Shown: piece after piece, positions 18,954 to 61,183 of the stretch
Position numbering within the stretch: the first letter of the stretch is position 1
Layout of the letters: every line of letters begins with the position of its first letter
Origin: Spirochaetia bacterium
Lineage (GTDB): Bacteria; Spirochaetota; Spirochaetia; SZUA-6; Bin103
Assembly (NCBI GenBank): GCA_965198005.1
Contig: CBDAOI010000002.1
Location: forward strand, 704,001-768,000
DNA length: 64,000 nucleotides
Reading direction: 5' to 3'
Made by a program: the position numbers and the translations under genes
The notes under the pieces: generated by a model
Told to the model about the DNA's origin: nothing
The model's database searches: none
The model's input: only the letters and a program-made list of their open reading frames with translations

Positions 18954-19755
18954 TCATTCGTAGCGAATCCGCGGGTCCAGCGACGCGTACAGCAGATCGG
19001 TCAGCAGGTTGACGAACACCACCACCGTGGCGAAGAACAGGTTCACCGCCGACACCACCGGGTAGTCGCGGTCGTTGAGCGCATCCAGCATCAGCCGCCC
19101 CAGCCCCGGCAGGTTGAAGATGTTCTCGATGATCACCGCGCCGCCCACCAGGATCGGGAGCTGCATGCCCACCAGCGTCACCACCGGGATGATGGCGTTC
19201 TTGACCGCGTGGCGCAGGATCACCGACCGCTCCAGCAGCCCCTTGGCCCAGGCGGTCCTGATGTAGTCCTGGCGCAGCACCTCCAGCATCATGGTGCGCG
19301 TCATGCGCATGGTGCTGGCCGCCAGGTAGGTGCCGAGGATCATCACCATCGTTCCCAGCCAGAAGTTGGGCGTCGCCAGCCCCATGATGGCCACCGACCG
19401 TCCCACGTAGTCGGCGGCGGTGTACTGGCGCACCGCCGAGTAGATGCCCACCGGCAGCGCGATGACCAGGCCGATGAGGATGGCCAGCAGCCCGAGCTCG
19501 GCGGTGACCGGCAGTCGTCCCAGCATGCGCTGCTTGATCCGCCAACCGCCCAGCAGCGACTCGCCCAGGGTGCCGCGCAGGAGGATGCCGCCGATCCACC
19601 GGCCGTACTGCACGTGGACGGGCACGTCCAAGCCCAGCATATGCTCCAGCGCCTCACGGTCCATCTTGCCGGCCATCCCGTCAACCCTCAGCGCCATAAC
19701 GCCTATTACATCGCCGGGGAGGAAGCGGACGGAGAGAAAGACTATGATCGACTCT
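18954..19755 (-). pseudogene. OppB/DppB-like permease with N-terminal loss and internal deletion
   Basis: Compared with paralogs it lacks MRAYIIRRLL..., and FWLGTMVMI joins directly to LGTYLAAS (about 35 aa missing); EAA motif QDYIRTAWAKGL present. Confidence 0.8.
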
Positions 19756-19777
19756 CGCACGTCGGCTCGCGCGGTGT

Positions 19778-19823
19778 AGGGAGCTGGGAGGAGCGCTTGC
19801 GGGCGACAGCCTCCCAGCTCCCT
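19778..19823. repeat. Stem-loop immediately 3' of SBP gene
   Basis: AGGGAGCTGGGAGG / CCTCCCAGCTCCCT, perfect 14-bp inverted repeat. Confidence 0.75.
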
Positions 19824-19855
19824 TTTCCCTGAGCTAAGCCACAAGGGTTGAAACC

Positions 19856-21706
19856 CTAATAACCCATTGCTTCCTTCAGCCCTTGGTCAATCCAGAGGCG
19901 GGCGAGGACGTCACGCTCGCCAAATTCGTGCAGCCTCATTTCACCGCTAAAACCTTTGACCCACGGCTGGTTCGGCATAAAGAGTGGAGACATAGGACCC
20001 CATATCTGATTGTGCTGCCTTATAATGAGCAGATCCCACTCTTTGAATGCCCTCAGCTGCTCCTCATGGGTGGTAGCGGCGTAAAAGGCATCGTAGGCGG
20101 CGGTCAGCTCGGGGGTCTCGACTCCGCCCACGTTGTCGCGCCATAACTGCAGCGTCTGGCGATAATTGGCTACCCAAACGTCAGGGTCATTATACATGCC
20201 CCCGTCGCCATCGCTCATGTCCCAACGAAGTAGGTCTTCTTGGGGGACATCCTCGGTACGCTCGCCCACACCCCTGCGCTCGAACGCCCAACCTTGCGTG
20301 TCATATATCTCAATCTTTACCTCAACGCCAAGCGCCTCCCAGTAGCCGACTGCTATTTCTCGATAGCCCAAATCATAGACGTCGCGGTGGTCGAGCTCGA
20401 CCTTGAATCGAACGCCGTCCGCGCCGCGCTGATATCCAGCCTCATCGAGCAGCTTCTCGGCACCTTCCGGGTCATAAGTAAAGTATTGCTTGAGATCTTC
20501 GGGATAGTCTTCAAACGTGGTGCCATACGGCTTGCTGGCAATCCCCCCCATAGGTTCCCACCTTGCAAGCCCGCCATAGTAGGTATCGTTAATCGTCTCG
20601 AGGTCCAGTGCCATCTGCATGGCGTGGCGCACCCTGATGTCGTCAAAGGGTGGCTTGCGAATGTTCACACTAAAGGTGGCGTCGGACCGCAGGAAATTGC
20701 TGCTCACCTGGATATCGGGGTTGGTACGCTGGAGGCTCCTTACCACGTCGAGGTTCCTTATGTGAGTGCCCTGGCTATTGATTATGTCAACCTTGCCCGT
20801 GCGTAGTGCCGAGATACGTGTTGCTTCTTCTTCTATATGCAGGGCCCTCATCTCGTCAATATAGGGGAGGCGGTTCTCCGGGTATTTTTCGTCGTAGCGC
20901 CAGTAGTCAGGATTCTTTTCCCAGCTGATAGAGACGCCCTCAACATAGTCAGTCAGTATAAGGGGCCCGGTGCCGACCACGTTCTTCCAATCCTCATAGT
21001 TGCCGTATTTCTCGATTACCTCGGGGGGTAATATCCACTGCATAGCGTCGATGAGGATAGTCCTTAGCGCAATGAGGGATGGCTCCGTCATCTTCATGAC
21101 AACCGTATATTTGTCGGTGGCCTCGATCGATTCCCACGGCAGGTCGAACGCCTTGGAAGCGATCTGGGGACGTTCGGTAAAGTCGCCCTGAGCGTTATTG
21201 CGTTGCCAGTTATATGCGACATCATCGGCTGTGAGTTCCCGCCCGTTTACTAAGCGACTGGCCTCGCTGTCCGGATCAAGGGCGTAGTGTACTCCCGAGC
21301 GGATGTGGAAGATGTACGTCAGTGGGTCAGGCGTTTCCCAGCTTTCCGCCAGGCTCCCAGTTATGGCAAAATCAGGGGCGTAAGAGTCTCTAAAGTCATA
21401 TACCTCCCTATCTGTTCCCCAGTCCCCCCAGGCGAGACGCTCATTAACCGAGGCGATGTGGTAGCCCGCATTGACCCAGCTTTTCAGCGGGTCAGTAGTC
21501 TCCGCATCAAATACATAGGGATAGGTTATTGTGCCGCCATACACTGGCGCGGTTACCGCCTTTCCGGTGGTGGGGTCCATCACCATTTCCTTCTCCATCG
21601 CCGCGGCCGGCTCCTCTTCCCCGGCCGGGCTCGCCCAGAGGCCGGTTGCGGTCAGGACGAGACCGAACAGTACCGCCAGGCACGTTCGAAACATTACGTA
21701 ATGCAT
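19856..21706 (-). CDS. ABC transporter substrate-binding protein, family 5 (copy A)
   Basis: Signal peptide, PVYGGT, LAESWE, GTGP, PFDDIRVR; SD AGGAG before MHYVMF. Confidence 0.93.
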   Translation of the reverse strand: MHYVMFRTCLAVLFGLVLTATGLWASPAGEEEPAAAMEKEMVMDPTTGKAVTAPVYGGTITYPYVFDAETTDPLKSWVNAGYHIASVNERLAWGDWGTDREVYDFRDSYAPDFAITGSLAESWETPDPLTYIFHIRSGVHYALDPDSEASRLVNGRELTADDVAYNWQRNNAQGDFTERPQIASKAFDLPWESIEATDKYTVVMKMTEPSLIALRTILIDAMQWILPPEVIEKYGNYEDWKNVVGTGPLILTDYVEGVSISWEKNPDYWRYDEKYPENRLPYIDEMRALHIEEEATRISALRTGKVDIINSQGTHIRNLDVVRSLQRTNPDIQVSSNFLRSDATFSVNIRKPPFDDIRVRHAMQMALDLETINDTYYGGLARWEPMGGIASKPYGTTFEDYPEDLKQYFTYDPEGAEKLLDEAGYQRGADGVRFKVELDHRDVYDLGYREIAVGYWEALGVEVKIEIYDTQGWAFERRGVGERTEDVPQEDLLRWDMSDGDGGMYNDPDVWVANYRQTLQLWRDNVGGVETPELTAAYDAFYAATTHEEQLRAFKEWDLLIIRQHNQIWGPMSPLFMPNQPWVKGFSGEMRLHEFGERDVLARLWIDQGLKEAMGY

Positions 21707-21935
21707 TCGATAACTCCTATCGTTTGAGAGTACGAAGTTCACTGCCGGTCCCTCGCCTACTCTCGACGTATGCCTGCAATCGCAGGCGGTCAGAAAGCGA
21801 GGGCGACACCCTGGCGCGTCCCGGCGCGGCGGCTCGCCGCTTGGGCTCGATGCGCCATACCTGGCTGTCGTAGTCGTGTCTTGGTCGTGTCTTAGTCGTA
21901 TCCGGTCTTGGGCTGCATCCCTTCCTCCTTTTTGT
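21707..21935 (-). ncRNA. SBP leader, family 1, copy A (candidate cis-regulatory RNA)
   Basis: Homologous to 54667-54895, 57921-58122 and 62984-63185; conserved hairpins and uORF. Confidence 0.75.
21892..21918 (-). CDS. Leader peptide MQPKTGYD (copy A)
   Basis: AGGAGG SD 5 nt upstream of ATG; identical peptide in four copies, with a CAG/CAA synonymous difference. Confidence 0.7.
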   Translation of the reverse strand: MQPKTGYD

Positions 21936-22400
21936 CGATTTGGACGCACCGACCGCGCGACCGCGCGGCGGGCGCCGCGACCTGGGTCATTTGGCGCCAC
22001 GTGCAGCGCCGCTACCCGGGTACCCGGGTGGGCGGCGCAGCGGTGCCGAAGGCGCAGGTAGGGCCCAGTGAATGCCGCTGCGGGATCAGTCCGAGCGGTT
22101 AGTGATTCTTGATCGTCAGGTGTATGACAGAGTCCCGCGCCCGCCCGTGGGGGGGGGGACCATAAGCGCTAACTTGTTGTGGGCGCTACAGGGACCGTCC
22201 ATGGCTCTACGGTGCGACTGGCAGTAGCACGGACTGTAGCCGGACCCGTGACTCGGGTCAACCAGCCAGATCGAAGTAAGCTGACAACTGAGACAGCCGG
22301 CGCCGTGGCGGCTCCCCGCATCAGGTGATTGACGGCACGTGGCAACGAGCGTTATATTAGCATGCAATAAGCATCGAAAACCAATCCTGAGAGGCGTGCA

Positions 22401-25077: not shown

Positions 25078-25254
25078 AGCGCCACGACGACAGTCAGCGC
25101 AGTGGCCGGTTGGCGGTGACGCAGCGCGATGAGCGCGTTGGGTCGCGCTTGACACGGATTTGGGCGGCCGCGTACACTCGTCCGCGAATGGGCACTGACA
25201 GCATCCAGCCCGACTACCGACTACCGACTACCGCTAGCCGCGCAGCAGCCGACC

Positions 25255-25705
25255 TCGCGGCGCCGGTGCTGACCGCGGCACCATTGATGCGTGTGGCGCA
25301 CAGCCGCCACGCATCTGTGCGTCCAACGGCTGACCGCGTCGGCCGCAAACTTCACCGGTCCACACCAGCCGGCGTTGCCGGCTCCTCTATACAGACAACC
25401 GACGCATCTGTGCCCGACCAGAGTTGTCGACGACAGATGCGCGCTAGCCGCGGCACCGGCTGGTCCGATGGCCGAGCCACCGTCCTGTCAAGGCACCCAA
25501 TAGCTCAAGAAAGGGGGTGCAAAATGACACTCAAAGAGCCGTAGGCGCGCGCGGGGTGAGCCCGGGTGAACCCGGTGAGTCACACGCCGCGCGCTTTCCG
25601 TGTATTTGACTCAAACTGGCCGTCCGCGTTGCGGGCCCGAGAGTAGCCAGGGAGCGGCAAGTCGCTCCGCAATACTCTCAAAAAGACAAATCTATGGAGA
25701 ATACC
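25255..25705 (+). ncRNA. SBP leader, family 2, copy E (candidate cis-regulatory RNA)
   Basis: Colinear homology with 33345-33793; hairpins with compensatory changes; contains a uORF. Confidence 0.7.
25524..25544 (+). CDS. Leader peptide MTLKEP
   Basis: AAGGGGGTG SD; homologous to MILKEP at 33613 (GAG/GAA synonymous). Confidence 0.6.
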   Translation: MTLKEP

Positions 25706-27499
25706 ATGAACTATATGGCAAGCATTACGAGGATCTTCGCGGTTGCGTTGGTCCTCGTCCTGACCGCAACCGGCGTCTGGGCCGCCGGCGCAGAAGAGGC
25801 ACCGGCAGCCGCTGCCGACAAGAAGTATGTGACCGACCCCTCCACCGGCAAGGTGGTGAGCGCGCCGGAGTATGGCGGGACATTCGCCCATGCCGTAAGG
25901 AACGAGCCTTCGAGTATTGCCGACACCTGGTTCCAGCCCGCGGCGGCGGTTGTCGTCGCTGCTGTTGCAGAGAGGCTGGGCGTTCCGGACTGGGCAGTAG
26001 ACAGGGACGAATATGCCCACACATCAGAGATCACGCTGGCAACTCCCCTAAGAGGGGAGCTGGCTGAAAGCTGGGAGATTTCCCCGGACGGCCTCACCTA
26101 CACCTTCCATATCCGCAAGGGGGTTCGCTGGCATAACAAGCCACCGATGAACGGTCGGGAGCTGACTGCCGATGATATCGTGTATAACTTTCATCGGGTG
26201 ATGGGTATGGGCAGCGGCTTCACCGAACCTTCCCCCACTGGCTTTACCAGGAATCTGCCATTCGAATCGATAGCGGCCACCGACAACTCGACGGTTGTTA
26301 TGAAGCTCGAGGAGCCAAGCCTCGACGCGCTGAACTTTATCACCACCGATTTTACCGGCAGCATATTACCCCCCGAGGTAATCGAGCAATTCGGCGACGT
26401 CAAGGATTGGAGGAACCTGGTCGGCACTGGACCCTATATGCTGACTGACTGGGTCGAGGGCAGCTCGATAACCTATGAAAAGAATCCTGACTACTGGGGC
26501 TTCGACGAAAAATACCCGGAAAACCGATTGCCCTATACTGACATGATAAGGACCCTGGTCATGCCTGAAGAGTCGACATTTGTGGCGGCGTTACGCACGC
26601 GTCGGCTTGATTTCACGGGTGTCCTCAGCGGATCTTCAATAACGTCACTCGACAAGGCAGAGAGCCTCCGGCGCACCAACCCTGAAATCGTGCAGTGGCC
26701 CCATCTCAATCGGTCGGACAATTCTCATGTGTTTGATGTGGCCCAGCCGCCTTTTGACGACCTGAGGGTGCGCACGGCGATGCAGATGGCACTGGACCTG
26801 GATACAATCAACAATACGTACTTCAAGGGTTTAGCAGTCTCGACACCTTACGGATTGTTAAGGGTCCCTGGGTATCACATCCCATTTGCAGAGTGGCCCG
26901 AAGAGGTCAAGAAGGGCTACATGTATGACCCGGAAGGTGCCGAGAAGCTCCTTGATGAGGCTGGATACCCGCGCGGTTCGGACGGAATCAGGTTTAAAAC
27001 GACCGTCAATCACTACGTATCGTTCGACCTCAACTATCAACAAATAACCGCTGAGTACTGGCGTGAAATCGGCGTTGATGTAGAGTTTGACGTAGCGGAC
27101 GGTCCTACGCTTGCCGCTCGTAGAAAGGACCATACTTTTGAAGGTATGATCACTTTGATTGCGGCTCTCACCTGGTCGCCGACCGCAGCGCTACGCTTCT
27201 GGTACTCGGAAGGAGGATGGACCGAAGACAACATCAATGACCCGGATTATGACGCCATGTACGACGCCGCCGCAGCCGCTGCCACCCCCGAGGAGCTGCA
27301 GAAGCTGGCTATAGAGCTGGATATGTACGAGATCGAGAGGCACTGGCATTTATGGGGTCCTATGGTCCCTCAGTTTATCGCGCACCAGCCGTGGGTCATG
27401 GGTTATAACGGTGAAGTCGATCTGGGGAGGATCAGTCAGCGCGTGATCTACGCCCGCCTCTGGATTGATAGTGAGCTGAAGGAAGAGATGGGTCATTAG
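25706..27499 (+). CDS. ABC transporter substrate-binding protein, family 5 (copy E)
   Basis: Signal peptide, PEYGGT, LAESWE, GTGPY, PFDDLRVR; SD GGAG before ATG 25706 (25694 is an alternative start). Confidence 0.93.
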   Translation: MNYMASITRIFAVALVLVLTATGVWAAGAEEAPAAAADKKYVTDPSTGKVVSAPEYGGTFAHAVRNEPSSIADTWFQPAAAVVVAAVAERLGVPDWAVDRDEYAHTSEITLATPLRGELAESWEISPDGLTYTFHIRKGVRWHNKPPMNGRELTADDIVYNFHRVMGMGSGFTEPSPTGFTRNLPFESIAATDNSTVVMKLEEPSLDALNFITTDFTGSILPPEVIEQFGDVKDWRNLVGTGPYMLTDWVEGSSITYEKNPDYWGFDEKYPENRLPYTDMIRTLVMPEESTFVAALRTRRLDFTGVLSGSSITSLDKAESLRRTNPEIVQWPHLNRSDNSHVFDVAQPPFDDLRVRTAMQMALDLDTINNTYFKGLAVSTPYGLLRVPGYHIPFAEWPEEVKKGYMYDPEGAEKLLDEAGYPRGSDGIRFKTTVNHYVSFDLNYQQITAEYWREIGVDVEFDVADGPTLAARRKDHTFEGMITLIAALTWSPTAALRFWYSEGGWTEDNINDPDYDAMYDAAAAAATPEELQKLAIELDMYEIERHWHLWGPMVPQFIAHQPWVMGYNGEVDLGRISQRVIYARLWIDSELKEEMGH

Positions 27500-27504
27500 T
27501 AGCT

Positions 27505-27532
27505 GAGCCGGGAGGCTCAAGCCTCCCGGCTC
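27505..27532. repeat. Stem-loop between SBP and permease
   Basis: GAGCCGGGAGGCT / AGCCTCCCGGCTC inverted repeat. Confidence 0.75.
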
Positions 27533-27555
27533 CCATCACCAAAACGAGGGATTTC

Positions 27556-28512
27556 CTGAGAGCCTATATCATCAGGCGAATATTGCTGATGATCCCCACC
27601 CTGTTCCTATTGACCATCGTGGTCTTTCTCTCGGTGCGCTTCATCCCCGGCGATGTCATCGACGTCATGGTGGGCCGCATGGACCAGTCCGCTACAAATA
27701 TAGACCGGGAAGCGCTCGAGCATCTGCTCGGATTGGACGTGCCGGTCTGGGTGCAATATGGAAGGTGGTTGGGAGGTGTTTTCCTGCACGGCAGCCTTGG
27801 TGAATCACTGATGGGCCGTGGGGCGGTAGAGGAGCGGATAGTCGCAAGGCTGCCGGTCACCCTCGAGCTGGGTGTCCTCGCAATCCTCATCGGCCTGGTG
27901 ATCGCGATGCCCGTTGGCATTTACTCCGCCGTTCGCCAGGATACCGCCGCCGACTTCCTGGGGCGGTCGGTCGCCATCATCGGCCTGGCCACGCCGAACT
28001 TCTGGCTGGCACTTATGGTCATCATCTACCCGGCCATCTGGTTCGGCTGGGCGCCACCGACGGAGCTGGTTTCCTTCACCGAAGACCCGCTGGGGAATCT
28101 GGCGGTGTTCATTATTCCCAGCCTGATTCTGGGGACCGCCTCGGCGGCCGCCACCATGCGGATGACGCGCACCATGATGCTCGAGGTGCTGAGGCAGGAC
28201 TATATCCGCACCGCCTGGTCCAAGGGGCTCAAGGAACGGGCCGTGGTGATCCGACACGCCGTCAAGAATGCCCTCATCCCGGTGGTGTCCCTGATCGGCC
28301 TGCAGTTGCCGATCCTGGTGGGTGGCGCCGTGATCATGGAGAACATCTTCAACCTGCCGGGGCTCGGGCGTCTCATGCTGATCGCCCTCAACGAGAGAGA
28401 CTACCCGATGGTCTCCGGAATAAACCTGTTTTTCGCCACGGCGGTTGCGGTATTCAATCTCATTACTGACCTGATCTATGCTTTCTTGGACCCCAGGGTC
28501 CGGTATGAATAA
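27556..28512 (+). CDS. OppB/DppB-like permease (homologous start codon is CTG)
   Basis: CTG-RAYIIRRILLMIPTL aligns with MRAHIIRRLL of paralogs; EAA motif QDYIRTAWSKGL. Confidence 0.9.
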   Translation: MRAYIIRRILLMIPTLFLLTIVVFLSVRFIPGDVIDVMVGRMDQSATNIDREALEHLLGLDVPVWVQYGRWLGGVFLHGSLGESLMGRGAVEERIVARLPVTLELGVLAILIGLVIAMPVGIYSAVRQDTAADFLGRSVAIIGLATPNFWLALMVIIYPAIWFGWAPPTELVSFTEDPLGNLAVFIIPSLILGTASAAATMRMTRTMMLEVLRQDYIRTAWSKGLKERAVVIRHAVKNALIPVVSLIGLQLPILVGGAVIMENIFNLPGLGRLMLIALNERDYPMVSGINLFFATAVAVFNLITDLIYAFLDPRVRYE

Positions 28513-28527
28513 AGGAAAATAACGAGT

Positions 28528-29505
28528 ATGAGTGACGCCGTAGGGATACCGTCAGCAGTAAGTGAGCCAAAAAGACGTAGCGGGCTGGCTGACTTCTTCA
28601 CCAGGATGGTCAAGGAGAAGCCAACGGGTACTGTCGGCGGGATTATCATATTGCTCTTGTTTTTTGTCGGGATCTTTGCCGATGTTCTGGCCCCTTATCC
28701 ATTTTCTGAAATACACCTGGCGGACAGGCTGCAGGGCTCATCAGCCCGGTATCTGCTCGGTACCGACCAGCTAGGGCGAGACCTCTTGACCCGCCTTATC
28801 TTCGGGGCTCGTATTTCGTTAACAGTGGGTCTGGCAGCGACCACTGTCAATGTCCTGGTGGCTGTCCTGATAGGTGGCATTTCGGGATTCTTTGGCGGAA
28901 AATTGGACCTAGCTGTGCAGAGATTTGTAGACGCCTGGATGTCTTTCCCGGGATTGCTCCTGTTGTTAACCATAATGTCCCTGGTGGGGCAGGGTCTGCC
29001 GCAGATAATAGTGGTACTGGGGATAACCGGAGGAATCGGCGGCTCAAGAGTAGTCCGAGGCGCTGTTATTGGTGTAAAAGAGAATGTGTATTTTCAGACG
29101 GCGGAGGTGATTGGCTGTACAAAACGGAGAACACTTATCAGACATGTCCTGCCCAATATCATGCCTGTCGTAATCATCCTATTCAGCATCAACATCGGGG
29201 GGGTGATTATCAGTGAGGCGTCCTTAAGCTTCCTCGGATTCGGACTACCAGCGGACGTTCCTAGCTGGGGAGGCATGCTTAGCCGGGAAGGGCGCGAGTT
29301 CATGGAGATGGCGCCACGGTTGGCTCTCTGGCCTGGCCTGGCCCTGACTATTACCGTTTACAGTCTGAACATGTTCGGTGACGCTATGAGGGACCTGCTG
29401 GATCCGAGGTTGCGTGGCGCAAGCGGAGTCAGGGGTGGTGTGGGTCGGCTCGGTGCTGATCCGTCAAAGAGAGCCATCAAGAAACAAGTAGCCGACGCAC
29501 GCTAG
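28528..29505 (+). CDS. OppC/DppC-like permease
   Basis: LLGTDQLGRD, RHVLPN, EASLSFLGFG, PSWG, GDAMRDLLDPR. Confidence 0.93.
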   Translation: MSDAVGIPSAVSEPKRRSGLADFFTRMVKEKPTGTVGGIIILLLFFVGIFADVLAPYPFSEIHLADRLQGSSARYLLGTDQLGRDLLTRLIFGARISLTVGLAATTVNVLVAVLIGGISGFFGGKLDLAVQRFVDAWMSFPGLLLLLTIMSLVGQGLPQIIVVLGITGGIGGSRVVRGAVIGVKENVYFQTAEVIGCTKRRTLIRHVLPNIMPVVIILFSINIGGVIISEASLSFLGFGLPADVPSWGGMLSREGREFMEMAPRLALWPGLALTITVYSLNMFGDAMRDLLDPRLRGASGVRGGVGRLGADPSKRAIKKQVADAR

Positions 29506-30200: not shown

Positions 30201-31105
30201 GTGATAGTGACCCCCCCTCGGCGTTTTTAGGGACCCCGGGGTCGGCATTCAAAGGGACCCCAGGTCGGCACTGAAAGGACCCCCCTCCTCGGCATCGAAA
30301 AGGACCCCCCTCATGATGCACGGTTGGTGCGTGCACACAACGAACTACGTGAGGAGGGTCAGAATGGCCAGGAGGACATCGACGATGGAACTACAGGATA
30401 TCGTCCGACGACTGAGAATGGGGCAGTCGATCAAGGCGATCAAGCGTGAGACCGGCAAGCACCGGCGCGTGATCCGCAGGCTGCTGCTGCTCGCCGAGCA
30501 GGAGGGGTGGCTGGATGAGCAGCATGAGGTGCCGTCCGAGCAGCAACTGCAGGAGGTGTACCACGAACAGCGGAGCGGCGAGGAAGGCCGCCGGCATCCG
30601 CTCGACTCGCACCGTGAGCAGATCGAGGGGTGGCGCGAGGAAGGCTACAGCTTCCTGGTGATCCACAAGTTGCTCGAAAAGCGGGGGGTGGAATACTCGG
30701 AGACCACGGTGCGCCGCTACATCCATCGCCACTTTCCGAAGGCGGTGCGACCGGTGATGCGGCGCGAGACGACCGCTGGCGAGGTGATGGAGGTGGACTT
30801 CGGATACCTGGGGCTCACCTGGCACACGACCACGCGCTCGCGGCGGCGCACCTGGGTGTTCTCGGGCCGGCTACGGCACTCCCGCCGCGCCTACCGTGAA
30901 GTGGTCTTCGATCAGAAGCAGCAGACCTTCTTCGCTTGCCACATCCACGCCTTCGAGTGGTTCGGCGGCGTGTCCGAGAAGGCGACCCCGGACAATCTGA
31001 AGGCGGCCATCATCGTCGCTTCCTTCGAGGACCCGGTGGTGAACCGCGCCTATCGCGAGTTGGCGCTGCACTACGGGTTCCTGATTTCGCCCTGTCTGCC
31101 TTACC
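30200..31105 (+). mobile_element. istA: IS21-family left end and truncated istA
   Basis: Five GACCCC-containing repeats at ~23-bp period (30209-30310); ORF from 30364 with GEVMEVDFG and PDNLKAAI, cut after CLPY; no istB. Confidence 0.85.
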
Positions 31106-31248
31106 TCATGAGCCAGCCCAGCGGGCCAGCAATTCTCGGTGAACAAAAATTGAGAGGGTCGGCGTAGGGGGCAATGGCGGGCGGGACGGCACGGGACGGC
31201 ACGTAAGTGGTCGTATAGGTCATGAGTATGTAATAACTCGATCCCAGG

Positions 31249-32601
31249 GTGGTCATGCTGTCTCCTATGGCAAGAGGTCGCCGCAGAGGTCCATTATTAC
31301 TTCGTTTTCGTGCGCTCCTGGTCTCCTTGAACCTGCACGCCGCCAAGGTCGTCGATACCCGCCAAGCCAGCAAGGTCCGGTACTCCCTACAGGATTGCTA
31401 CGTGTGTGGTTTCGCCTTGTTCTACCTCCAAGACCCTTCCGTGCTGGAGTTCCAACGCCGCTTCCAGGACGAACTGCGCACCAACAACCTCAACTCTACG
31501 TTTGGCGTCGCTCAGATCCCTGCCGACTCCCAGTTCCGCGATCTGCTCGACAGCCATGACTATGAACCGCTGCTCGACTGCTTCGGCGACTGGATAGGGC
31601 GCATGCAGGACGCCAAATGGCTGCAGCACTACCAGTTCCTCGACGGTCGCTATCTCATCACCATGGACGGCTCCCAGTACTTCAGCTCGTACCAGGTGAA
31701 CTGTGAGTGCTGTCTGACCGCCACCAACAACGGCACCGTACGCTACCACCACGACATCCTGCAGACCGCCATCGTCCACCCCGACAAGCGGCAGGTGCTG
31801 CCGTTGGCTCCCGGGTTCATTCACAACGCCGATGACTCTGGCGCCAAGAATGCCAAACGCCGCAAGCAGGACTGTGAAATAAAAGCCGGCTACCGTGCCT
31901 TGCAGCGCATCCGTAACGACCATCCCCGGCTGGCTGCGGTGATCGTCGCCGATAGTCTGTACTCCAAGCAACCGTTCATCGAACAGGTGCGCGCCGCCCG
32001 CTTCTCGTTTCTGCTGGTGGCCAAACCGGAGGATCACACCAGCCTGTACCAGGATATCGACGGGCTGCGCCGCGGTCGGCTGCTGGACCACCACTGCACG
32101 ATCGACGCGACCGGGGACCGGCATGAATACGAGTGGGTTACCGGGGTGCCGCTGAACGGCAACCCCCGCAGTCCCAAGATCAACTTCGTGTACTACCGCA
32201 TCGTACGTGCCGGCACGACCACCTATCAAAACGCCTGGGTGACCGACTTGGTGCCCAGCGCTGGCAGCGTAGCGCGGATCGTGCGTGCGGGACGAGCACG
32301 CTGGAAGATCGAGAACGAGGGGTTCAATACGCTGAAGAACCAGGGCTACCACCTGGAGCACAACTTCGGCCACGGTGACAAGTACTTGTCGGAGGCGTTC
32401 TTCGTGCTCAATCTGCTGGCCTATTTCATGCACCAGATATTCGAGCTGGTGGACGGTCTGTATCAGCAGGTGCGGGCTGGGTTCGGGTCGCGCCGGGAGT
32501 TCTGGGGCGCGGTCCGCGCCACGTTTCGGCTATTCCTGTTCCCGTCGTGGGACCAGGTGCTGGTGCGGATGAACTCGCCGCCGCAGCCGCTGCCCGTGTA
32601 G
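31249..32601 (+). mobile_element. DDE transposase (ISNCY-like), apparently intact
   Basis: ITMDGSQYF, KQDCEIKA, VADSLYS, GRARWKIENEGFNTLKNQGY; second copy at the window end. Confidence 0.88.
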
Positions 32602-33344: not shown

Positions 33345-33793
33345 CTCGGTGCCGGTGCTGAGCGCGGCACCACCGATCCGCGTGGCACACACTCGCCACG
33401 CGTCCGCGCATCGAACGGGCGACCCGTTCGCCCGCAAACTCATACCAGTCCACACGTGCATGCGCAGCGACGTTGCCGGAGCGAGAAGGGGCACGCGTGT
33501 GCGCGACCAAACTCGTAGGCCACAGATGCGCGCTAACCCGTGGCAGCGGCTCGGCGATCGCCGGGCCACCATTCTGTCAGAGGAACCTGTAGCTCAAGAG
33601 AGGAGGTGGAAAATGATACTCAAAGAACCGCACGCGCGCGCGGTGTGAGCCCGGCCGAACCCGGTGAGTCACACGCCGCGCGCTTTCAGTGTAATTGACT
33701 CAGGCTGGCTGTCCGCGTTGCGGGCGTCAGAGTAGCCGGGGAGCGACAACTCGCTCCGCAATACTCTGGAGATAACATTTTAAGGAAGACACG
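33345..33793 (+). ncRNA. SBP leader, family 2, copy F (candidate cis-regulatory RNA)
   Basis: Homologous to 25255-25705; CAGAGTA/TACTCTG here versus GAGAGTA/TACTCTC (covarying pair). Confidence 0.7.
33613..33648 (+). CDS. Leader peptide MILKEPHARAV
   Basis: AGGAGGTG SD; the TAG of copy E is CAC here, so the frame extends to a TGA inside the hairpin arm. Confidence 0.6.
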   Translation: MILKEPHARAV

Positions 33794-35572
33794 ATGAAAA
33801 ACTTTTTGACAATGACCTTCGCGGTTGTGTTGGTCCTGGTGGTGACCGCAACCGGCCTCTGGGCCGCTGGCGCGGAAGAGGAGCCGGCAGCGGCGATGGA
33901 GACGGAAATGGTGGAGGAAGCTGGACCGCAATACGGTGGGACGATTACCATGATGGACGCATATCTCGGGCGCTTCCCGCCTACAGAGTGGGACCCAGCT
34001 AAGTTTGTCTGGCCGTTAATGGTCTATGTTGAACATTTCGAGCAGCTTCTTGGTGGAGACTGGCAGAATAGGGGGCCACGTGGCACCAATGAGTGGCCGT
34101 TCAATATACGTTCAGGTCCTCCTAATGATTTTCTATCACCTGTTTTAGCTGAAAGCTGGACTACGCCCGATGACACAACCGTTATTTTCAAAATACGTCG
34201 GGGAGTCATGTGGCATGAAGCGCCGGGAGTAATGGCATCAAGGGAGCTGACAGCGGAGGATGTAGCTTATCACTGGACTCGTACTCTAGCGTCAGACAAG
34301 GCCTGGAGCATATATGGTGCAGTTGAGTCGGTAACCGCCACGGATGAGTACACGGTTGAATTCAAGTTGGCCTCTTACACGCCTGATTGGATGCTTCTTA
34401 TAGGAAGGGGCCATTTACCGACGTGGATCGCGAGTCCTCCAGAGCTGGTGGAGGCGGGACCAAGTGACTGGAGGAACCATCGTGGGGTAGGGACAGGCCC
34501 GTTTTTGCTCGATGACTTCGTGGAAGGCACCTCGGTAAGTTACGTAAGGAACGACAATTACTGGCAAACTGAAACCATCGATGGCAAGGAATACGAGATT
34601 CCGTTCATCGACCGCCTGGTTAAAATTCTAAATCCGGATAGAGCTGCCCAGATCGCTGCGTTACGAACAGGGAGGCTGGACCAACTTAATGCAGTTGGCG
34701 CGCAGTACGTCCAGTCGCTACAAGATACAAATCCCGAAATAAAGTTTATTGGGAGACCAGCAGGCGGGTCCTACTTAGTAGGCATGAGGCTAGATACGGC
34801 GCCCTTTGACGATCCGAAGGTGCGGAAAGCAATGAGCATGGCTATAGATCGACAAGGCTTTATTGCCAATATATGGGGTGGTGCGGGAGAGATTTTAAAC
34901 TTTCCGGCACCTGCGAACCTGCCAGAGACTGTCTATACTCCTCTGGAGAAGCTACCGGAATCAATTAGGGGGCAGCTTGAATATAACCCCGAGCGTGCGA
35001 GGCAACTATTAGCCGAGGCGGGACTCGCGGACGGTTTCGAGGCGACTCTGCAAGGATATGCAATAGAGCCTTGGGAAGATATAGCTTCGTTACTGGTAGC
35101 TTTCTGGGCTGATATCGGAGTCGACGTTTCAATCGATTTGATTGAGAAGACTACTATGGATGCCATGTTTACAGCCAAGGAGCATGGGCCGCTTTCAATG
35201 TTTACCGTTGGAGGAGGTGTTGATGCGCTTGGTGTAATACAGGGACGATACATCGAGCCCCTGATATATAATACACCAATGTTTGAGCATCACCCTGAAT
35301 ACGCTGAATTTAGAGAGCGATGGCAGCAGGCATACGATAAAAGGGACCTGGTTGAAAAGTACAAGCTAACCAAGCAGTTGAACCAGGAGGCCTTATCGAC
35401 TGTCGCTTTCGCCCTTTTGCCAACTCCATATGTATACCTAGGTATCTGGCCATGGGTGGAGAACCACCACGGCGAACTCGCTCCAGCGGCGGGGACGGGT
35501 GGTGTAGGCCCGGTTATGGCTCGTGTCTGGATCAACAGCGCCTTGAAGCAACAATTGGTGGGAGGTCAATAG
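33794..35572 (+). CDS. ABC transporter substrate-binding protein, family 5 (copy F)
   Basis: Signal peptide, PQYGGT, LAESW, GTGPF, PFDDPKVRKA. Confidence 0.93.
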   Translation: MKNFLTMTFAVVLVLVVTATGLWAAGAEEEPAAAMETEMVEEAGPQYGGTITMMDAYLGRFPPTEWDPAKFVWPLMVYVEHFEQLLGGDWQNRGPRGTNEWPFNIRSGPPNDFLSPVLAESWTTPDDTTVIFKIRRGVMWHEAPGVMASRELTAEDVAYHWTRTLASDKAWSIYGAVESVTATDEYTVEFKLASYTPDWMLLIGRGHLPTWIASPPELVEAGPSDWRNHRGVGTGPFLLDDFVEGTSVSYVRNDNYWQTETIDGKEYEIPFIDRLVKILNPDRAAQIAALRTGRLDQLNAVGAQYVQSLQDTNPEIKFIGRPAGGSYLVGMRLDTAPFDDPKVRKAMSMAIDRQGFIANIWGGAGEILNFPAPANLPETVYTPLEKLPESIRGQLEYNPERARQLLAEAGLADGFEATLQGYAIEPWEDIASLLVAFWADIGVDVSIDLIEKTTMDAMFTAKEHGPLSMFTVGGGVDALGVIQGRYIEPLIYNTPMFEHHPEYAEFRERWQQAYDKRDLVEKYKLTKQLNQEALSTVAFALLPTPYVYLGIWPWVENHHGELAPAAGTGGVGPVMARVWINSALKQQLVGGQ

Positions 35573-35668
35573 GCAATAGGGAAATAGAGAAATAGTGTGA
35601 GTTAATTCTTCTCTGACAGACGGGGGTGAGGGTAGCTTCTCTCTCCCCCGTATTTTTGGTAGAGAGGG

Positions 35669-36658
35669 ATGCAAGCCTACATAATCAGAAGATTACTCCT
35701 GATTATACCCACTATACTCGTAGCGAGTCTAATAGTGTTCTTCCTTCTTCGCTTTATTCCCGGCGATGTAGTGACCAAGATGGTGGCTTCGCATCCGGTG
35801 GTTGGGGAAGCATTGGACGAGGCGGCTTTACGACAAAGCCTGGGACTGGATGTGCCAATCCCAGTCCAATACGGACGCTGGATAGGAGTTATTCGGGACC
35901 GTCAAGGCTCATTTTCTGGACTTTTACAAGGCAGCCTTGGATCATCCCTATGGCGCCAGCAACCTGTGATTGAGATAATACTCAATAGATGGCCAGTAAC
36001 CTTTGAGCTTTCTATCTTAGGTATGACAATAGCCCTACTAGTAGCCCTACCTATAGGTATCTACTCAGCGATGCGGCCGGACACCATTGGCGACTACATC
36101 GCGCGCAGCTTTGCTATTCTCGCTATCGCTGTACCCGTCTTCTGGCTAGGGACGCTGGTAGTAGTCGTCCCCTCGATTTGGTGGGGTTGGTCTCCGCCGC
36201 TAGAGTTTATCAAGTTCACTGATGACCCGCTGGGAAACCTGGGGCAGTTCATCATTCCGGCTAGTGTCTTGGGCCTGAATATGGCGGGGGCGGTCATGAG
36301 GATGACGCGAACCATGACGCTGGAGGTGCTAAGGCAAGATTACGTAAGGACAGCCTGGGCAAAGGGACTCAAGGAGAGGATGGTAATCCTCCGGCATACT
36401 CTCAAAAACGCCCTAATTCCGGTGGTCACCGTAACGGGAGTTGTGTTTCCTACGGTGGTTGGGGGTTCAGTTGTCACAGAGACGATATTCGGCATGCCCG
36501 GCATAGGTACTTTACTGCTACTGGCCATCAACGATAGAGACTATCCCATAATCTCCGGAGTAATGTTGTTAGTGGCTGGCATTATGGTGCTGACCAATCT
36601 AGTTATTGACCTGTCCTACGGCTTTCTTGACCCCAGGGTTCGGGGTTCGTATGAGTGA
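35669..36658 (+). CDS. OppB/DppB-like permease
   Basis: MQAYIIRRLL, PVTFEL, QDYVRTAWAKGL. Confidence 0.93.
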   Translation: MQAYIIRRLLLIIPTILVASLIVFFLLRFIPGDVVTKMVASHPVVGEALDEAALRQSLGLDVPIPVQYGRWIGVIRDRQGSFSGLLQGSLGSSLWRQQPVIEIILNRWPVTFELSILGMTIALLVALPIGIYSAMRPDTIGDYIARSFAILAIAVPVFWLGTLVVVVPSIWWGWSPPLEFIKFTDDPLGNLGQFIIPASVLGLNMAGAVMRMTRTMTLEVLRQDYVRTAWAKGLKERMVILRHTLKNALIPVVTVTGVVFPTVVGGSVVTETIFGMPGIGTLLLLAINDRDYPIISGVMLLVAGIMVLTNLVIDLSYGFLDPRVRGSYE

Positions 36659-37610
36659 GTTAAATAGGCACTCCCCGTTTCTTATCAGGCTGGCCAAGCA
36701 GAAACCACTGGGTCTTATCAGTGGGATCATAGTGCTTCTCTTTCTTTTTACTGGGATTTTTGCCGATTGGCTGGCTCCTTACGGAATGAACGAAATTCAC
36801 CTTAGTGATGGCCTGCATCCACCATCAACCGAGTATTTCCTCGGTACGGATAACCTGGGGCGGGACATGTTAAGTCGTGTTATCTTTGGGGCTCGTATCT
36901 CGATGATTGTAGGTTTAGCTGCTGGCGCTATAGCTGTACTTATAGCCTTATTGATAGGTGTTCCTTCCGGGTTTATCGGCGGTAAGTTTGATATTGCGGT
37001 GCAGCGGTTCGTTGATGGCTGGATTTCCTTTCCCTCGTTAGTCATTTTCTTAGCCGTTGTCTCTATCGTGGGGGCAGGTATGTTGCAGCTGATTATCGCT
37101 ATAGGGGTGGGACTAGGTATCCTTACTTCAAGGATAATGAGAAGCGCCGTTATCGGCGTTAAGGAGAATATTTATTTTTCGGCGGCGAAGGCGATTGGCA
37201 GTCCACGTAGAAGAATACTCTGGCGGAATGTTCTGCCCAATATTATGGCTCCCGCACTCATCGTATTTTCGACACAGGTGCCCTCTGCAATATTAACTGA
37301 AGCCGGCCTCAGCTTCCTTGGTTTTGGCATCCCCCCACCGCAGCCTAGCTGGGGAGGTATGCTCAGTGGCTCTGGACGCTCTTATATGTTCCTAGCTCCT
37401 TGGATGGCCATATGGCCTGGTCTTGCTATCACTATTGTAGTCTACGGCATCAATATGTTTGGCGATGCGGTCAGAGACCTCTTGGACCCGAAGCTGAGGG
37501 GTGGTCTCGGGGGATATTCCGGAACAACGAGAAAAGCATCCAAGCGTTTGAAAAAGGCCGTACAAACAGGGAAACCGTCCGCGAATCTACGTGGGATACA
37601 ACAACGGTGA
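36651..37610 (+). CDS. OppC/DppC-like permease
   Basis: LGTDNLGRD, EAGLSFLGFG, PSWG; overlaps the oppB stop. Confidence 0.93.
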   Translation: MSELNRHSPFLIRLAKQKPLGLISGIIVLLFLFTGIFADWLAPYGMNEIHLSDGLHPPSTEYFLGTDNLGRDMLSRVIFGARISMIVGLAAGAIAVLIALLIGVPSGFIGGKFDIAVQRFVDGWISFPSLVIFLAVVSIVGAGMLQLIIAIGVGLGILTSRIMRSAVIGVKENIYFSAAKAIGSPRRRILWRNVLPNIMAPALIVFSTQVPSAILTEAGLSFLGFGIPPPQPSWGGMLSGSGRSYMFLAPWMAIWPGLAITIVVYGINMFGDAVRDLLDPKLRGGLGGYSGTTRKASKRLKKAVQTGKPSANLRGIQQR

Positions 37611-52856: not shown

Positions 52857-54666
52857 CTAATAGCCCATTTCTGCCTTCAGCGCACTATCAATCCAGAGGC
52901 GGGCGAGGATGGGGAAGTAGTCCATGAATCCAAGGTGGGTTTCACCGTTGGATCCGACCACCCACGGCTGGTGTGCCATGTACTTTCCAGCTTTAGGACC
53001 CCATATCCACCAGTGGTTCTCCATGGTGTACATATCCACCTCTTTGACCAGCCTTTGCCGTTCCTCTTCGGACGTAGTGGCTTGGGCGGCGTCGAGAAGG
53101 GCGTCCAACTCAGGGTACCTGATTCCGTGTAAGTCCTCGTGGCTAGTCGAGTGTACCATCTGGCGTACAAAACCCAACGGCTCAGTATTGTTGCCCATGG
53201 TGTGATATATCAGACCTTCCCACGTGCGGTCACCTCGAACAGCAGTAGAGGCAGCTCCATCCAATACGTTGATCTGCACATCAACGCCAATCTCGGCCCA
53301 GTAGGTGGCAGCCAGTTCACTGAAACCCAAAGGAAACCGATAGAGATGGTTCAACACGGTCTTGAATCGCGTGCCGTCCGCGCCGCGCGGATATCCGGCC
53401 TCATCCAGCAACGCTTCCGCCGCCGCCGGATCGTACCGATAGCCGTCCTTGACCTCGTCGGGCCACTCGTCGAAGGGAGTGAAATACCCGCTGACGCCCT
53501 CCCCTATTATGCCCTGAGGCTGCCAGGCTGAAGTGCCCTTGTAGACGCTGCGGTCGATGCCCTCGAGGTCTATCGCCATCTGCATGGCTCGGCGCACCCT
53601 GACGTCGTCAAAGGGCGGCTTGCTCGCGTCCATAACATAAGAGGTTTCCGAACGGAGCCACCACGGCAGCAGCATGATCTCGGGGTTGCTCTTCCGGAGG
53701 CTCTCGAGCACCTCGACCGATACGATATCAGAGCCACCGGCAGGCAAACCTAGGAAATCAATCTTGCCGGTGCGCAGTCCCGCTAGACGGGTCTCTTCCT
53801 CTGTGATGATAAGGCCCTGAATCTCGTCAATATAGGGCAGACGATTCCCCGGGTACTTCTCGTCGTCTTTCCAGTAGTCAGGATTCTTCTGGAAGGTAAA
53901 AGAGCTGCCCTCGGTCCAGTCAGTAAGGAAATAGGGCCCGGTACCGACCAGGTTCCTCCAGTCCTTCACGTCACCGTACTGCTGGATGACCTCGGGCGCG
54001 TTCATATAGGTGAGGCCCAGGCCAAGATACTGTCCAAGAGCTGCGCTACTGGGCTCCGCCAGCTTGATAACAACCGTGTATCTGTCGGTGGCCGTTACCG
54101 ACTCGCCAGGTGGCCGCTGATACGTAAAGGGGCTCGGTCCGGCTTCGGCAAAGTCGCCCAGGCCCAGCAGGCGATGAAAGTTGAATACGACATCATCAGC
54201 AGTAAACTCTCTCCCGTTCATCGGTGGCTTGTCGTGCCAGTTCACACCCTTGCGGATGTTGAAGATGATCGTGAGGGGGTCGGGGGTGTCCCAGCTCTCA
54301 GCCAGATGCGGTTTATAGACGGATAGATCCGGAGGTATGTACGTGTTTCTGAACGAAAACACGTCCCTATCTATTCCCCAGTCCATGAGTCCCAGCTTCT
54401 CTGTAGTGCCGCCGGTGACCCTTGCTTGGGAATGAAGGAAATGGGTGTCAGCATTCGCTGGCTCGCCCGCGGTGGCAAAGGTCAATGTCCCGCCATACTC
54501 CGGCGCCACCACTACCTTGCCGGTGGTGGGGTCGGTCACGTACCTCTTCTCCGCGGCGGCGGCCGGCTCCTCCTCTGCACCACCCGCCCACAGGCAGGTC
54601 GCGGTAAGGGCGAGTCCAACCAGGACCGCCAGGCAACTTCGAAACGTTACGCGTTACGTAAAGCAT
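52857..54666 (-). pseudogene. Family-5 SBP (copy B), frameshifted in the signal peptide
   Basis: 7-bp duplication CGTTACG at 54645-54658; removing one copy restores a 600-aa ORF from ATG 54666. Confidence 0.88.
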
Positions 54667-54895
54667 TCGATAACTCCTATAAACTCCTATCACTCGAGAG
54701 TACGAAGTTTACTGCCGGCCCCTCGCCTACTCTCGCGGTATGCCTGCAATCGCAGGTAACCGAAAAAACGAGGGCGACACCCTGGCGCGTCCCGGCGCGA
54801 CGGCTCGCCGCCCGGGCTCGATCAGCCATACCTGGCTGTCTTGGTCGTGTCTTAGTCGTATCCGGTCTTGGGTTGCATCCCTTCCTCCTTTGGTC
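54667..54895 (-). ncRNA. SBP leader, family 1, copy B (uORF MQPKTGYD at 54852-54878)
   Basis: Homology to the other three copies; SD and uORF intact. Confidence 0.75.
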
Positions 54896-57920: not shown

Positions 57921-58122
57921 CGATAACTCCTATCACTCGAGAGTACGAAGTTCACTGCCGGGCCCTCGCTTACTCTCGAGGTATGCCTGCAATCGCAGGC
58001 GGTCAGAAAGCGAGGGCGACACCCTGGGTCGTCCGGACGCGGCGGCTCGCCGCCCGGGCTCGATCGGCTTGGCTACGGCTTAGTCGTATCCGGTCTTGGG
58101 TTGCATCCCTGCCTCCTTTGGT
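57921..58122 (-). ncRNA. SBP leader, family 1, copy C (uORF MQPKTGYD at 58080-58106)
   Basis: Homology to the other copies; CTCGAGAGTA/TACTCTCGAG 10-bp stem. Confidence 0.75.
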
Positions 58123-59259: not shown

Positions 59260-60165
59260 CTACACGGACCGGGCCTCTTGCGCGCCCAGACGGCCCGCTC
59301 CACCGATCAGCCGCGGGTCGAGCAGGTCGCGCACCGCGTCGCCGAGCATGTTCAGGCTGTACACGGTAACCGTCAACGCCAGGCCGGGCCAGAAGGCGAG
59401 GTGCGGCGCCGCCTCCATGTACTGGCGGCCCTCCCGGCTCAGCATTCCACCCCAGCTCGGAATCTCGATCGGCAGGCCGAAGCCAAGAAAGCTCAAGGCA
59501 GCTTCCGAGATGATCACGCCCCCGACGTTGATGCTGAATACCACGATTATCGGAGCCGCGATGTTGGGCAGCACGTGGCGGACAATTATCTTCCACTGCG
59601 AGGCGCCAATCGCCCGCGCGGACTGAAAATAGTCGTTCTCCTTGACATTGATGACAGCGCTCCTGAGCACGCGCGAGCCGACGATGCCGCCCGAGATGCC
59701 CAGGACCGCGATCAACTGCACCAACCCCTGGCCCACGATCGCTATGATGGTCAACAACAGCAGCAGCCCCGGGAACGACATCCACGCATCCACGAACCGC
59801 TGCACTACCAGGTCCAGCCTGCCACCGAGGAATCCCGAGGTGCCGCCGATCAGCACGGCGACCAGAACGTTGAGCGTGGTGGCTGCCAGACCCACCGTCA
59901 GGGAAACCCGGGCGCCGTGGATGATGCGGCTCAGGAGGTCCCGCCCCAGGTGGTCGGTACCGAGCGGATACTGGGCCGATGAGCCCCGCAACCGGTCGGG
60001 CAGGTGCCTCTCACCATAGGGGTAGGGAGCGATCACGTCAGCGAAGACGGCCACCAGAATCAGGATCACTACGGCAATGCCGCTGGCCGTTCCCAGCGGC
60101 TTCTCCTTGACCAGCCGGGTCAAGAACCGCGTGCGCCCGCTGCTTTGACTGCTTTGACCCACCAC
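59260..60165 (-). CDS. OppC/DppC-like permease
   Basis: [29 protein letters not shown]. Confidence 0.93.
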   Translation of the reverse strand: MVGQSSQSSGRTRFLTRLVKEKPLGTASGIAVVILILVAVFADVIAPYPYGERHLPDRLRGSSAQYPLGTDHLGRDLLSRIIHGARVSLTVGLAATTLNVLVAVLIGGTSGFLGGRLDLVVQRFVDAWMSFPGLLLLLTIIAIVGQGLVQLIAVLGISGGIVGSRVLRSAVINVKENDYFQSARAIGASQWKIIVRHVLPNIAAPIIVVFSINVGGVIISEAALSFLGFGLPIEIPSWGGMLSREGRQYMEAAPHLAFWPGLALTVTVYSLNMLGDAVRDLLDPRLIGGAGRLGAQEARSV

Positions 60166-60176
60166 TGTTTGACCGC

Positions 60177-61130: not shown

Positions 61131-61140
61131 GGTCCTCGCA

Positions 61141-61179
61141 CCCTCGGAGGGGGACAACCCCTTGTCCCCCTCCGGAGGG
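61141..61179. repeat. Stem-loop 3' of SBP (related copies at 52823-52851 and 56074-56104)
   Basis: CGGAGGGGGACAA / TTGTCCCCCTCCG inverted repeat. Confidence 0.78.
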
Positions 61180-61183
61180 AGAG

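Follow-up and report, generated by a model that had tools for sequence, protein, structure and literature searches.

The E. coli tnaC leader with rut, erm and cat are leader-peptide attenuation systems, and the E. coli ompA 5′ untranslated region (5′ UTR) and cryIIIA STAB-SD are portable 5′ stabilisers of single-gene mRNAs. The small RNAs AbcR1 and AbcR2 of Rhizobiales regulate in trans via short sites near the Shine-Dalgarno sequence (SD), and the ospE/ospF/elp (Erp) paralogs of Borrelia are said to have an upstream homology box in common. The 64,000-nucleotide stretch of DNA analysed here (the window; contig CBDAOI010000002.1, positions 704,001 to 768,000, from a Spirochaetia bacterium) contains six copies of a leader located upstream of genes for family-5 solute-binding proteins (SBPs), which head ABC uptake operons of the peptide type. 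The leaders fall into two families, and the 90 bases flagged in a first-pass annotation (25590-25680) are the 3′ domain, in the following termed the core, of a modular and lineage-specific 5′ leader RNA of these genes. Both leader families have the core, which is found at 116 or more SBP loci of the genome. The first-pass annotation had proposed one system for six transporters, of which the common core is retained and the scale is not. With Rfam 15, no match was obtained for the whole window at the gathering threshold, the sole match of 20 whole leaders at E ≤ 1 was to part of a group II intron, unrelated and on the other strand, and no description of this leader was found in a full-text literature search. 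The element is new as a family, and its kind, a leader peptide combined with a structured 5′ UTR, is known.

The genome harboring the window (G000; 4.89 Mb on 4 contigs, 66% GC, 90.4% complete) was searched for SBP genes and leaders. The PF00496 profile gave 133 scored matches out of 226 candidates, and a family-specific hidden Markov model gave 176 open reading frames (ORFs), 138 of which are strong matches with the N-terminus present. Sequence profiles of the two leader families gave 49 and 85 matches, and a leader is located directly upstream on the same strand in 111 of the 138 SBP genes (74 with family 2, 37 with family 1). A covariance model, R1, was built from 51 cores of both families, with a small hairpin (P2) and the closing stem of a long hairpin (P3) as the only structure given, and found 116 matches in G000 at E ≤ 0.01. 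All 116 are followed by a co-oriented family-5 SBP coding sequence, with a distance of always 10 to 60 nt between the core and the start codon. An intact SBP-family ORF of at least 250 amino acids was found on the same strand after 109 of them, and frameshifted or shortened SBP fragments are encoded downstream of the remaining seven. In seven congeneric genomes, SBP coding sequences were located downstream of R1 matches in 25 out of 25 checked loci. Enrichment upstream of family-5 SBP genes had been expected in the first-pass annotation, and random orientation or gene context, as for repetitive extragenic palindromes (REP) or miniature inverted-repeat transposable elements (MITE), had been named as one observation speaking against a regulatory RNA; the enrichment is complete, and no such copy is found among the 116 plus 25 loci. 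With 116 of 116 matches in one gene context, the behaviour of the element is not that of a REP or MITE.

The pairing of the core was evaluated in two alignments. In a MAFFT alignment of the 51 cores, made with no structure fitted (A1), 95.6% of the cells are paired versus 91.1% in shuffled alignments, and only 27 to 62% when the partner columns were slid. Changes on both sides were observed in 7 out of 13 pairs (2.3 in shuffled alignments) and in 34 cells (4.7), values reached by none of 500 shuffles. In a model-based alignment (A3; 102 matches, 92 of them distinct, from G000, the seven congeneric genomes and records of metagenome-assembled genomes, MAGs), which leans towards the model, the corresponding values are 96.1% versus 90.3%, 10 out of 13 pairs versus 4.3 and 68 cells versus 9.1, the cells counting related sequences and not independent events in both cases. 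Compensatory changes thus exceed the shuffled as well as the slid controls, as for structured cis-acting RNAs in general, and the covariation that had been claimed is borne out. P2 and the closing stem of P3 covary and a single model detects both families, which means that the two share a common structured 3′ RNA core, as had been suggested from the six copies in the window.

Common to both families are P2, the closing stem of P3 and an unpaired AGGG..CGGCA segment close behind the 5′ arm of P3. At the base of P3, five pairs (GAGAG/CTCTC) are nearly invariant, and the upper P3 stem of family 1 alternates (one pair is T-A in 27, C-G in 7 and T-G in 4 sequences, the next one A-T in 18 and G-C in 13). 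The window contains six occurrences of AGAGTA-N15-45-TACTCT (21727, 25640, 33729, 54697, 57940 and 63004) compared to 0.01 expected from shuffles, and all motifs named in the first-pass annotation are present at the positions given there. The variant CAGAGTA/TACTCTG is located at 33728-33768 as described, where it had been taken as a compensatory change of the closing pair. As a single example this change is weak, since 20 of 82 distinct family-2 copies lack pairing at the outermost G-C position of P3 and only two have the C-G form; other positions of the stem covary strongly. The structure belongs to the sense strand, which follows from the higher stability of the sense fold compared to the antisense fold (40 of 48 family-1 and 69 of 82 family-2 cores, 109 of 130 in total) and from a T-G wobble at the second P2 pair in 46 of 88 family-2 copies, the commonest form of P2 in this family.

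Outside these common parts the two families differ. The interior of P3 forms a local hairpin in family 2 and pairs with an upstream strand in family 1, and the upstream ORFs (uORFs) of the two families are unrelated. The M-x-x-K signature previously ascribed to both uORFs is coincidental, given other family-1 subtypes with MQN*, MRN*, MEN*, M*, MKSPYD* or no ATG. A common stem end CGCTTTC is not retained either: TTTC is variable after the GC helix of family 2, and the CGC of family 1 belongs to a different pairing. Hybrid leaders also occur, one of which (L131) combines a 5′ part of the family-1 type with a P3 interior of the family-2 type.

The family-2 leaders of the window (plus strand, at 25.5 kb and 33.6 kb) consist, in their 5′ half, of an SD, a uORF and a 12-bp GC helix (P1) with a tip hairpin, ending with ...CGCGCTTTC, and in their 3′ half of the GTCCGC-GTT-GCGGGC hairpin (P2), the long hairpin (P3), an A-rich linker, a second SD and the SBP gene. 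The four family-1 copies (minus strand) contain the uORF MQPKTGYD*, a GC hairpin, ...CCCTCGCTTTC, a GCCTGC-GATT-GCAGGC hairpin and the long hairpin. The features of the six copies are as follows.

25513-25519 (+): strong SD of the family-2 uORF, read from the sequence
25524-25544 (+): family-2 uORF MTLKEP*, read from the sequence
25547-25594 (+): P1, GC-rich helix of 12 bp, arms 25547-25558 and 25583-25594
25562-25575 (+): tip hairpin of P1, CCGGG-TGAA-CCCGG
25603-25679 (+): R1 match at the first family-2 copy
25616-25620 (+): CTGGC, strand of a candidate family-2 pseudoknot, complementary to GCCAG at 25646-25650
25622-25636 (+): P2, small hairpin GTCCGC-GTT-GCGGGC, with covariation
25639-25679 (+): P3, long hairpin, closing arms GAGAGTA 25639-25645 and TACTCTC 25673-25679
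25651-25668 (+): inner hairpin of P3; the P3 interior also includes the conserved AGGG..CGGCA segment
25694-27499 (+): family-5 SBP gene (PF00496, E = 6.5e-73); likely true start ATG 25706, preceded by GGAG at 25696-25699 (read from the sequence)
33613-33648 (+): family-2 uORF MILKEPHARAV*, 11 codons, TGA within the 5′ arm of P1 (P1 at 33636-33683)
33692-33768 (+): family-2 core, P2 33711-33725, P3 33728-33768 (CAGAGTA/TACTCTG), R1 score 73.4 bits
33794-35572 (+): family-5 SBP gene, followed by permease genes 35669-36658 and 36606-37610
63144-63170 (-): family-1 uORF MQPKTGYD*
63003-63086 (-): family-1 core, P2 63049-63064, P3 63003-63041, R1 match
63074-63080 and 63027-63033 (-): strands of the S1 pairing in this core, 5′ CCCTCGC and 3′ GCGAGGG, the latter within the P3 loop; pseudoknot topology
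61184-62983 (-): family-5 SBP gene, likely ATG 62983, followed by two permease genes
58080-58106 (-): family-1 uORF MQPKTGYD*
57939-58022 (-): family-1 core, R1 match
56121-57920 (-): family-5 SBP gene (PF00496, E = 2.1e-63)
54852-54878 (-): family-1 uORF MQPKTGYD*
54696-54780 (-): family-1 core, R1 match
52857-54666 (-): family-5 SBP gene, apparently frameshifted at the 5′ end (ATG 54664-54666, frame open only from 54539)
21892-21918 (-): family-1 uORF MQPKTGYD*
21726-21809 (-): family-1 core, R1 match
19856-21706 (-): family-5 SBP gene, likely ATG 21704-21706, followed by a permease gene at 18954-19844

The SBP genes of the window match PF00496 with E-values of 1e-63 to 1e-73 and are the first genes of their operons, mostly with two permease genes behind. 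Operons of an SBP gene with one or two permease genes are located at 18954-22000, 25694-29505, 33794-37610 and 59260-63019, and no ATPase gene was seen next to them among the ORFs checked. The SBP gene at 56121-57920 is followed by an ORF of the Uma2 family and not by permease genes, and the one at 52857-54666 (-) contains an extra ACGCGTA-like repeat just after its ATG. Two transposase-like ORFs (rve/HTH_29 and DDE_Tnp_1, weak Pfam matches) are located at 30313-32601 (+) between the two family-2 SBP operons.

The uORF of family 2 is preceded by a AGGAGGTG-like SD, which is kept in the family profile, and its start codon varies among ATG, GTG and TTG/CTG only. A short translatable uORF, as in leader-peptide systems, is thus present by sequence, with a strong SD and conserved start codons. 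The peptide is MILKEPHARAA* in 45 of 90 gap-free copies throughout the genome, and in 15 of 90 the stop follows right after Pro6; codon 7 is free and often a stop. Among 42 distinct sequences, codons 3 to 6 (L-K-E-P) differ from the consensus 4, 4 and 32 times at the first, second and third codon position, respectively. This pattern, together with the retained start codons, indicates that the uORF is selected as a peptide. Sensing of a rare codon by the uORF was dismissed, since ATA accounts for 27% of the Ile codons in SBP genes and is not rare.

The stop codon of the uORF lies within the 5′ arm of P1 in most family-2 copies, and this arm includes the final codons and the TGA of the 11-codon form, so that a translating ribosome would have to unwind P1. 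The 12 pairs of P1 are almost invariant, each being formed in 81 to 85 of 81 to 86 distinct copies. Two further candidate pairings of family 2, CTGGC/GCCAG and TGAGTCA/TGACTCA, were not accepted as established helices, being complementary in most copies but near-invariant, with some uncompensated mismatches; for the former, 82 to 88 of 89 copies are paired per position, with seven uncompensated G-G and no two-sided change. Like tnaC, erm and cat, the leader has a short uORF with a strong SD ahead of a structured region, and in family 2 a selected peptide with its stop within a strong helix. In contrast to these attenuators, no antiterminator/terminator pair and no SD-sequestering helix can be assigned, one leader serves more than 100 genes, and the 3′ core has no counterpart there.

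The uORF of family 1 is tiny and is found as M[Q/A/T]PKTGYD*, MKSPYD*, M[Q/R/E]N* or M*, or its ATG is lost, in which case the uORF SD is retained. Behind it lies a C-rich tract that varies in length, an arrangement reminiscent of tnaC with rut. The CCCTCGC in the region previously read as CGCTTTC is complementary to GCGAGGG, which is located in the P3 loop one base past the 5′ arm. This pairing, S1, is formed in 97.1% of the cells in 35 family-1 cores. These cores belong to four architectural subtypes, in which the small hairpin precedes P3, lies within it, is missing or is enlarged. Of the five pairs of the main S1 helix, four change on both sides, each in one or two sequences only. S1 is read as a probable H-type pseudoknot of family 1. 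In minimum free energy folds of two family-1 copies, S1 appears as an alternative to P3, so a switch would be possible.

Metatranscriptome contigs from four libraries of three studies cover leader and coding sequence at ≥95% likeness, and one contig of 113 nt spans 25652-25764, from P3 into the gene. The contigs are consistent with a location of the core in the 5′ UTR; their high depth over the leader reflects the copy number of the leader. At a short tandem repeat of CCGACTA units upstream of the 25.5-kb leader (25206-25232, +), the contigs end or diverge, with loose ends at 25211 in three of four runs. At the start of the gene, a hairpin in which the start codon is paired and the SD lies in the loop was found in 45 of 137 SBP genes, mostly with family 2, compared to 6.4% of shuffles. 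It has the form CATACG-GAGAAA-CGTATG with a compensatory variant CATAGG/CCTATG, and ATGG-AGAATA-CCAT in the window (25693-25709).

ROSE-like and ROSE-G RNA thermometers are located upstream of ABC transporter genes (PMC12857270). The SD of the present leaders differs from theirs in being in a hairpin loop or unpaired and not paired in the final hairpin. The ROSE models gave no match to 20 leaders at E ≤ 1. A thermometer of this type was rejected on these two grounds, the loop position applying where the start-codon hairpin is present.

The leaders do not simply follow the genes. In a tree of 120 SBPs, from which the first 70 residues had been removed, the leader class (family 1, family 2 or none) must have switched no fewer than 38 times, compared to 48 ± 2.6 (minimum 40) with shuffled labels, and it differs in 16 of 39 sister pairs. 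In five sister pairs, the coding sequences are 85-100% identical and the upstream 240 nt are unrelated, with the break between the start codon and approximately +60. The class changes and the unrelated leaders on near-identical genes point to an exchange of leaders as cassettes; by this sequence evidence, the leaders are modular units swapped among SBP paralogs, and simple co-inheritance with gene duplication was rejected in view of the 38 changes and the pairwise profiles. In L033, the core stands alone, directly after a promoter-like TTGACA...TATGGT, and the leader of a similar gene in another MAG (L026) contains no core. The upstream homology box of Borrelia is alike in being a conserved upstream block in divergent paralogs with recombination around it; it differs in being described as homology of promoter and leader DNA and not as covarying RNA, and in its far lower copy number. 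Mean pairwise identity of family-2 leaders is 0.78-0.90 at -180 to -31, which equals or exceeds the best-conserved coding bins, and the leaders are >85% identical at most columns; the SBPs carrying them are approximately 50% identical. In the SBP coding sequence, the region from +30 to +180 (signal peptide and N-terminus) has a mean pairwise nucleotide identity of 0.72-0.85 in paralogs that are about 50% identical overall, which may be due to gene conversion or to a role at the RNA level.

R1 matches were found in seven of ten other genomes of the same genus (at least 71, at least 69, at least 43, at least 39, 8, 4 and 1, counted among the best 73 candidates per genome) and in none of 50 genomes outside the genus (13 from the sister genus, 37 from other families of the order). 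The public records containing the leader are MAGs titled "Spirochaetia bacterium". Two congeners (G009 and G010) have no R1 match yet 58 and 53 SBP matches, so that the SBP expansion is wider than the leader and perhaps older.

Several further observations were made on SBP loci of G000. Broken SBP loci are numerous across the genome, and four half-leaders, consisting of uORF and GC helix only, adjoin shortened or deleted SBP genes. About a dozen of the 27 SBP paralogs with neither a family-1 nor a family-2 leader have a third leader type (for example, outside the window, at C1:71700, C1:79101, C4:340094 and C4:2246505, strand coordinates). It comprises two nested hairpins, GCCGGAGTATCCGGC and then CGGGTACCGGGAC...GTCCCGATCCCG, followed by GAGGAGGAG and ATGACTCCA. 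A group II intron D1-D4 fragment (RF02005; 37.5 bits, gathering score 49) is located just upstream of one family-2 leader (L122:1-51 (-), corresponding to G000:C3:760688-760738), on the strand opposite to the leader.

With a probability of roughly 60%, the whole SBP set is under common post-transcriptional control via the core, which would act in cis on the mRNA. In the preferred version, one trans-acting factor common to all loci, most probably a protein, would use the core as its docking domain and set the stability or the translation of the SBP mRNAs. A docking domain is preferred because AGGG..CGGCA and the lower five pairs of P3 are nearly invariant while other pairs covary. The upstream modules might add a second layer of control. 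In family 2, a ribosome on the M-I-L-K-E-P uORF would melt the 12-bp GC helix, providing a translation-coupled gate of the attenuator type, and the unwinding of P1 might lead to read-through of a weak terminator, to refolding of the downstream RNA or to protection from decay. Such control resembles that by AbcR1 and AbcR2 in that a single RNA-based regulation would extend across many SBP mRNAs of ABC transporters, and differs in that the conserved element is located in cis and no RNA partner in trans was found.

Several results weigh against common control by a docked factor. The shared protein or ligand partner suggested as possible in the first-pass annotation received no support: neither CsrA (PF02599) nor Hfq (PF17209) is found in the 90.4% complete genome, both being rejected as the shared factor, and no RNA complementary to the conserved loop was found in the rest of the genome, where the loop motifs have a few chance-like matches only. 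No SD-coupled switch is predicted either. When the 5′ arm of P3 was blocked in silico, the accessibility of the SD remained at 0.26 in family 1 (31 leaders) and went from 0.56 to 0.48 in family 2 (60 leaders); an anti-SD switch, in which TACTCTC would pair with the SD upon opening of P3, was rejected on these partition-function values, and there is no obvious expression platform linking core and SD. P1 is a possible but not a clear-cut intrinsic terminator: a simple scan of 25250-25750 gave no terminator-like site (and no promoter-like site) and at least four T within the 8 nt after P1 are present in 30 of 88 family-2 copies only. The RNA contigs reveal neither transcript ends nor strand and may include carried-over DNA, the covarying cells are not independent of each other, and much of the apparent conservation of the uniform family 2 could be explained by concerted evolution instead of selection.

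The alternative that survives best, which is possible though not likely, is a self-contained mRNA stabiliser or translation enhancer that does not sense anything. The stable 5′ structure and a strong SD or uORF near the 5′ end would guard an abundant SBP message from 5′-dependent decay, the A-rich linker serving as a standby site. Such a role is known from ompA and STAB-SD, which likewise combine stable 5′ hairpins and/or a strong SD-like site near the 5′ end with an unpaired A-rich stretch ahead of the true ribosome-binding site, and which are transferable between genes. The portability of the core among genes of presumably different specificity, its occurrence on its own right after a promoter-like site in L033, the uORF SD kept in family-1 subtypes lacking the ATG, the lack of a predicted coupling to the SD and the position of the SBP genes ahead of the permease genes would all fit. 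A simple protective hairpin, however, needs neither near-invariant loop nucleotides common to two otherwise different families nor a uORF conserved at the peptide level, and ompA and STAB-SD have neither a covarying multi-helix core nor a conserved leader peptide.

It is rather improbable that a new class of riboswitch is present, with the core as aptamer for a single global metabolite or ion. Conserved unpaired nucleotides framed by covarying stems, the probable pseudoknot, a 5′ UTR site in a single orientation and gene context and the absence of a match to a known Rfam class are what an aptamer would look like. No terminator or SD-sequestering alternative is tied to the core, though, as is apparent from the SD accessibilities given above (0.26 to 0.26 and 0.56 to 0.48), which leaves such a switch with no obvious expression platform. 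Restriction to one genus is unusual for a metabolite sensor, and the topology of the P3 interior differs between the families, with upstream pairing in one and a local hairpin in the other.

A still poorer candidate, to which very little probability is assigned, is a 5′ cassette, recombining or selfish in nature, that gene conversion has homogenised in more than 100 paralogs, so that the similarity would mostly be concerted evolution and the hairpins would have little function. Family 2 is uniform enough for this, swapping is frequent, decayed copies are many, and the element occurs in part of one genus with a wider SBP expansion (58 and 53 SBP matches and no leader in G009 and G010). Homogenisation does not account for helices kept by compensatory changes, for the third-position variation of the uORF, for the strand-specific G-U bias and for the strict context of 116 out of 116.

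A DNA operator made of inverted repeats for a transcription factor, or a REP/MITE repeat, hardly deserves consideration: P2 of family 1 is a perfect 6+6 palindrome and the L033 core lies just downstream of a promoter-like site, but the commonest P2 of family 2 is not palindromic as DNA (T-G in 46 of 88), folding favours the sense strand in 109 of 130 cores, the arms of P3 are 25-29 nt apart, and no copy has the opposite orientation or another context.

A more far-reaching form of common control can also be envisaged, in which a new riboregulatory system would act globally, with the core as its sensor or docking domain, one small-molecule or protein signal gating more than 100 transporter operons, the MILKEP uORF as a new sensor or arrest peptide providing a second input, and leader swapping plugging transporters in and out. 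This full version is regarded as unlikely. More than 100 operons under one signal would be the largest cis-RNA regulon in a single genome known to us, and we know of only tens of copies in even the richest T-box or c-di-GMP riboswitch genomes.

As a compact RNA domain with covariation behind it and a probable pseudoknot, the core is ready for bench tests, and so is the conserved leader peptide of six residues that accompanies it. If the leader is regulatory, it would represent an extreme case of coordinated post-transcriptional control, with at least 116 copies in a 4.9-Mb genome upstream of approximately 80% of a giant SBP family, and it would account for the tuning of a very large nutrient-scavenging repertoire by one signal in an uncultured, sponge-associated bacterium. 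The leader swaps between near-identical paralogs are a natural experiment in the rewiring of a regulon, and if the global system described above were real, swapping would connect or disconnect single transporters on short evolutionary time scales.

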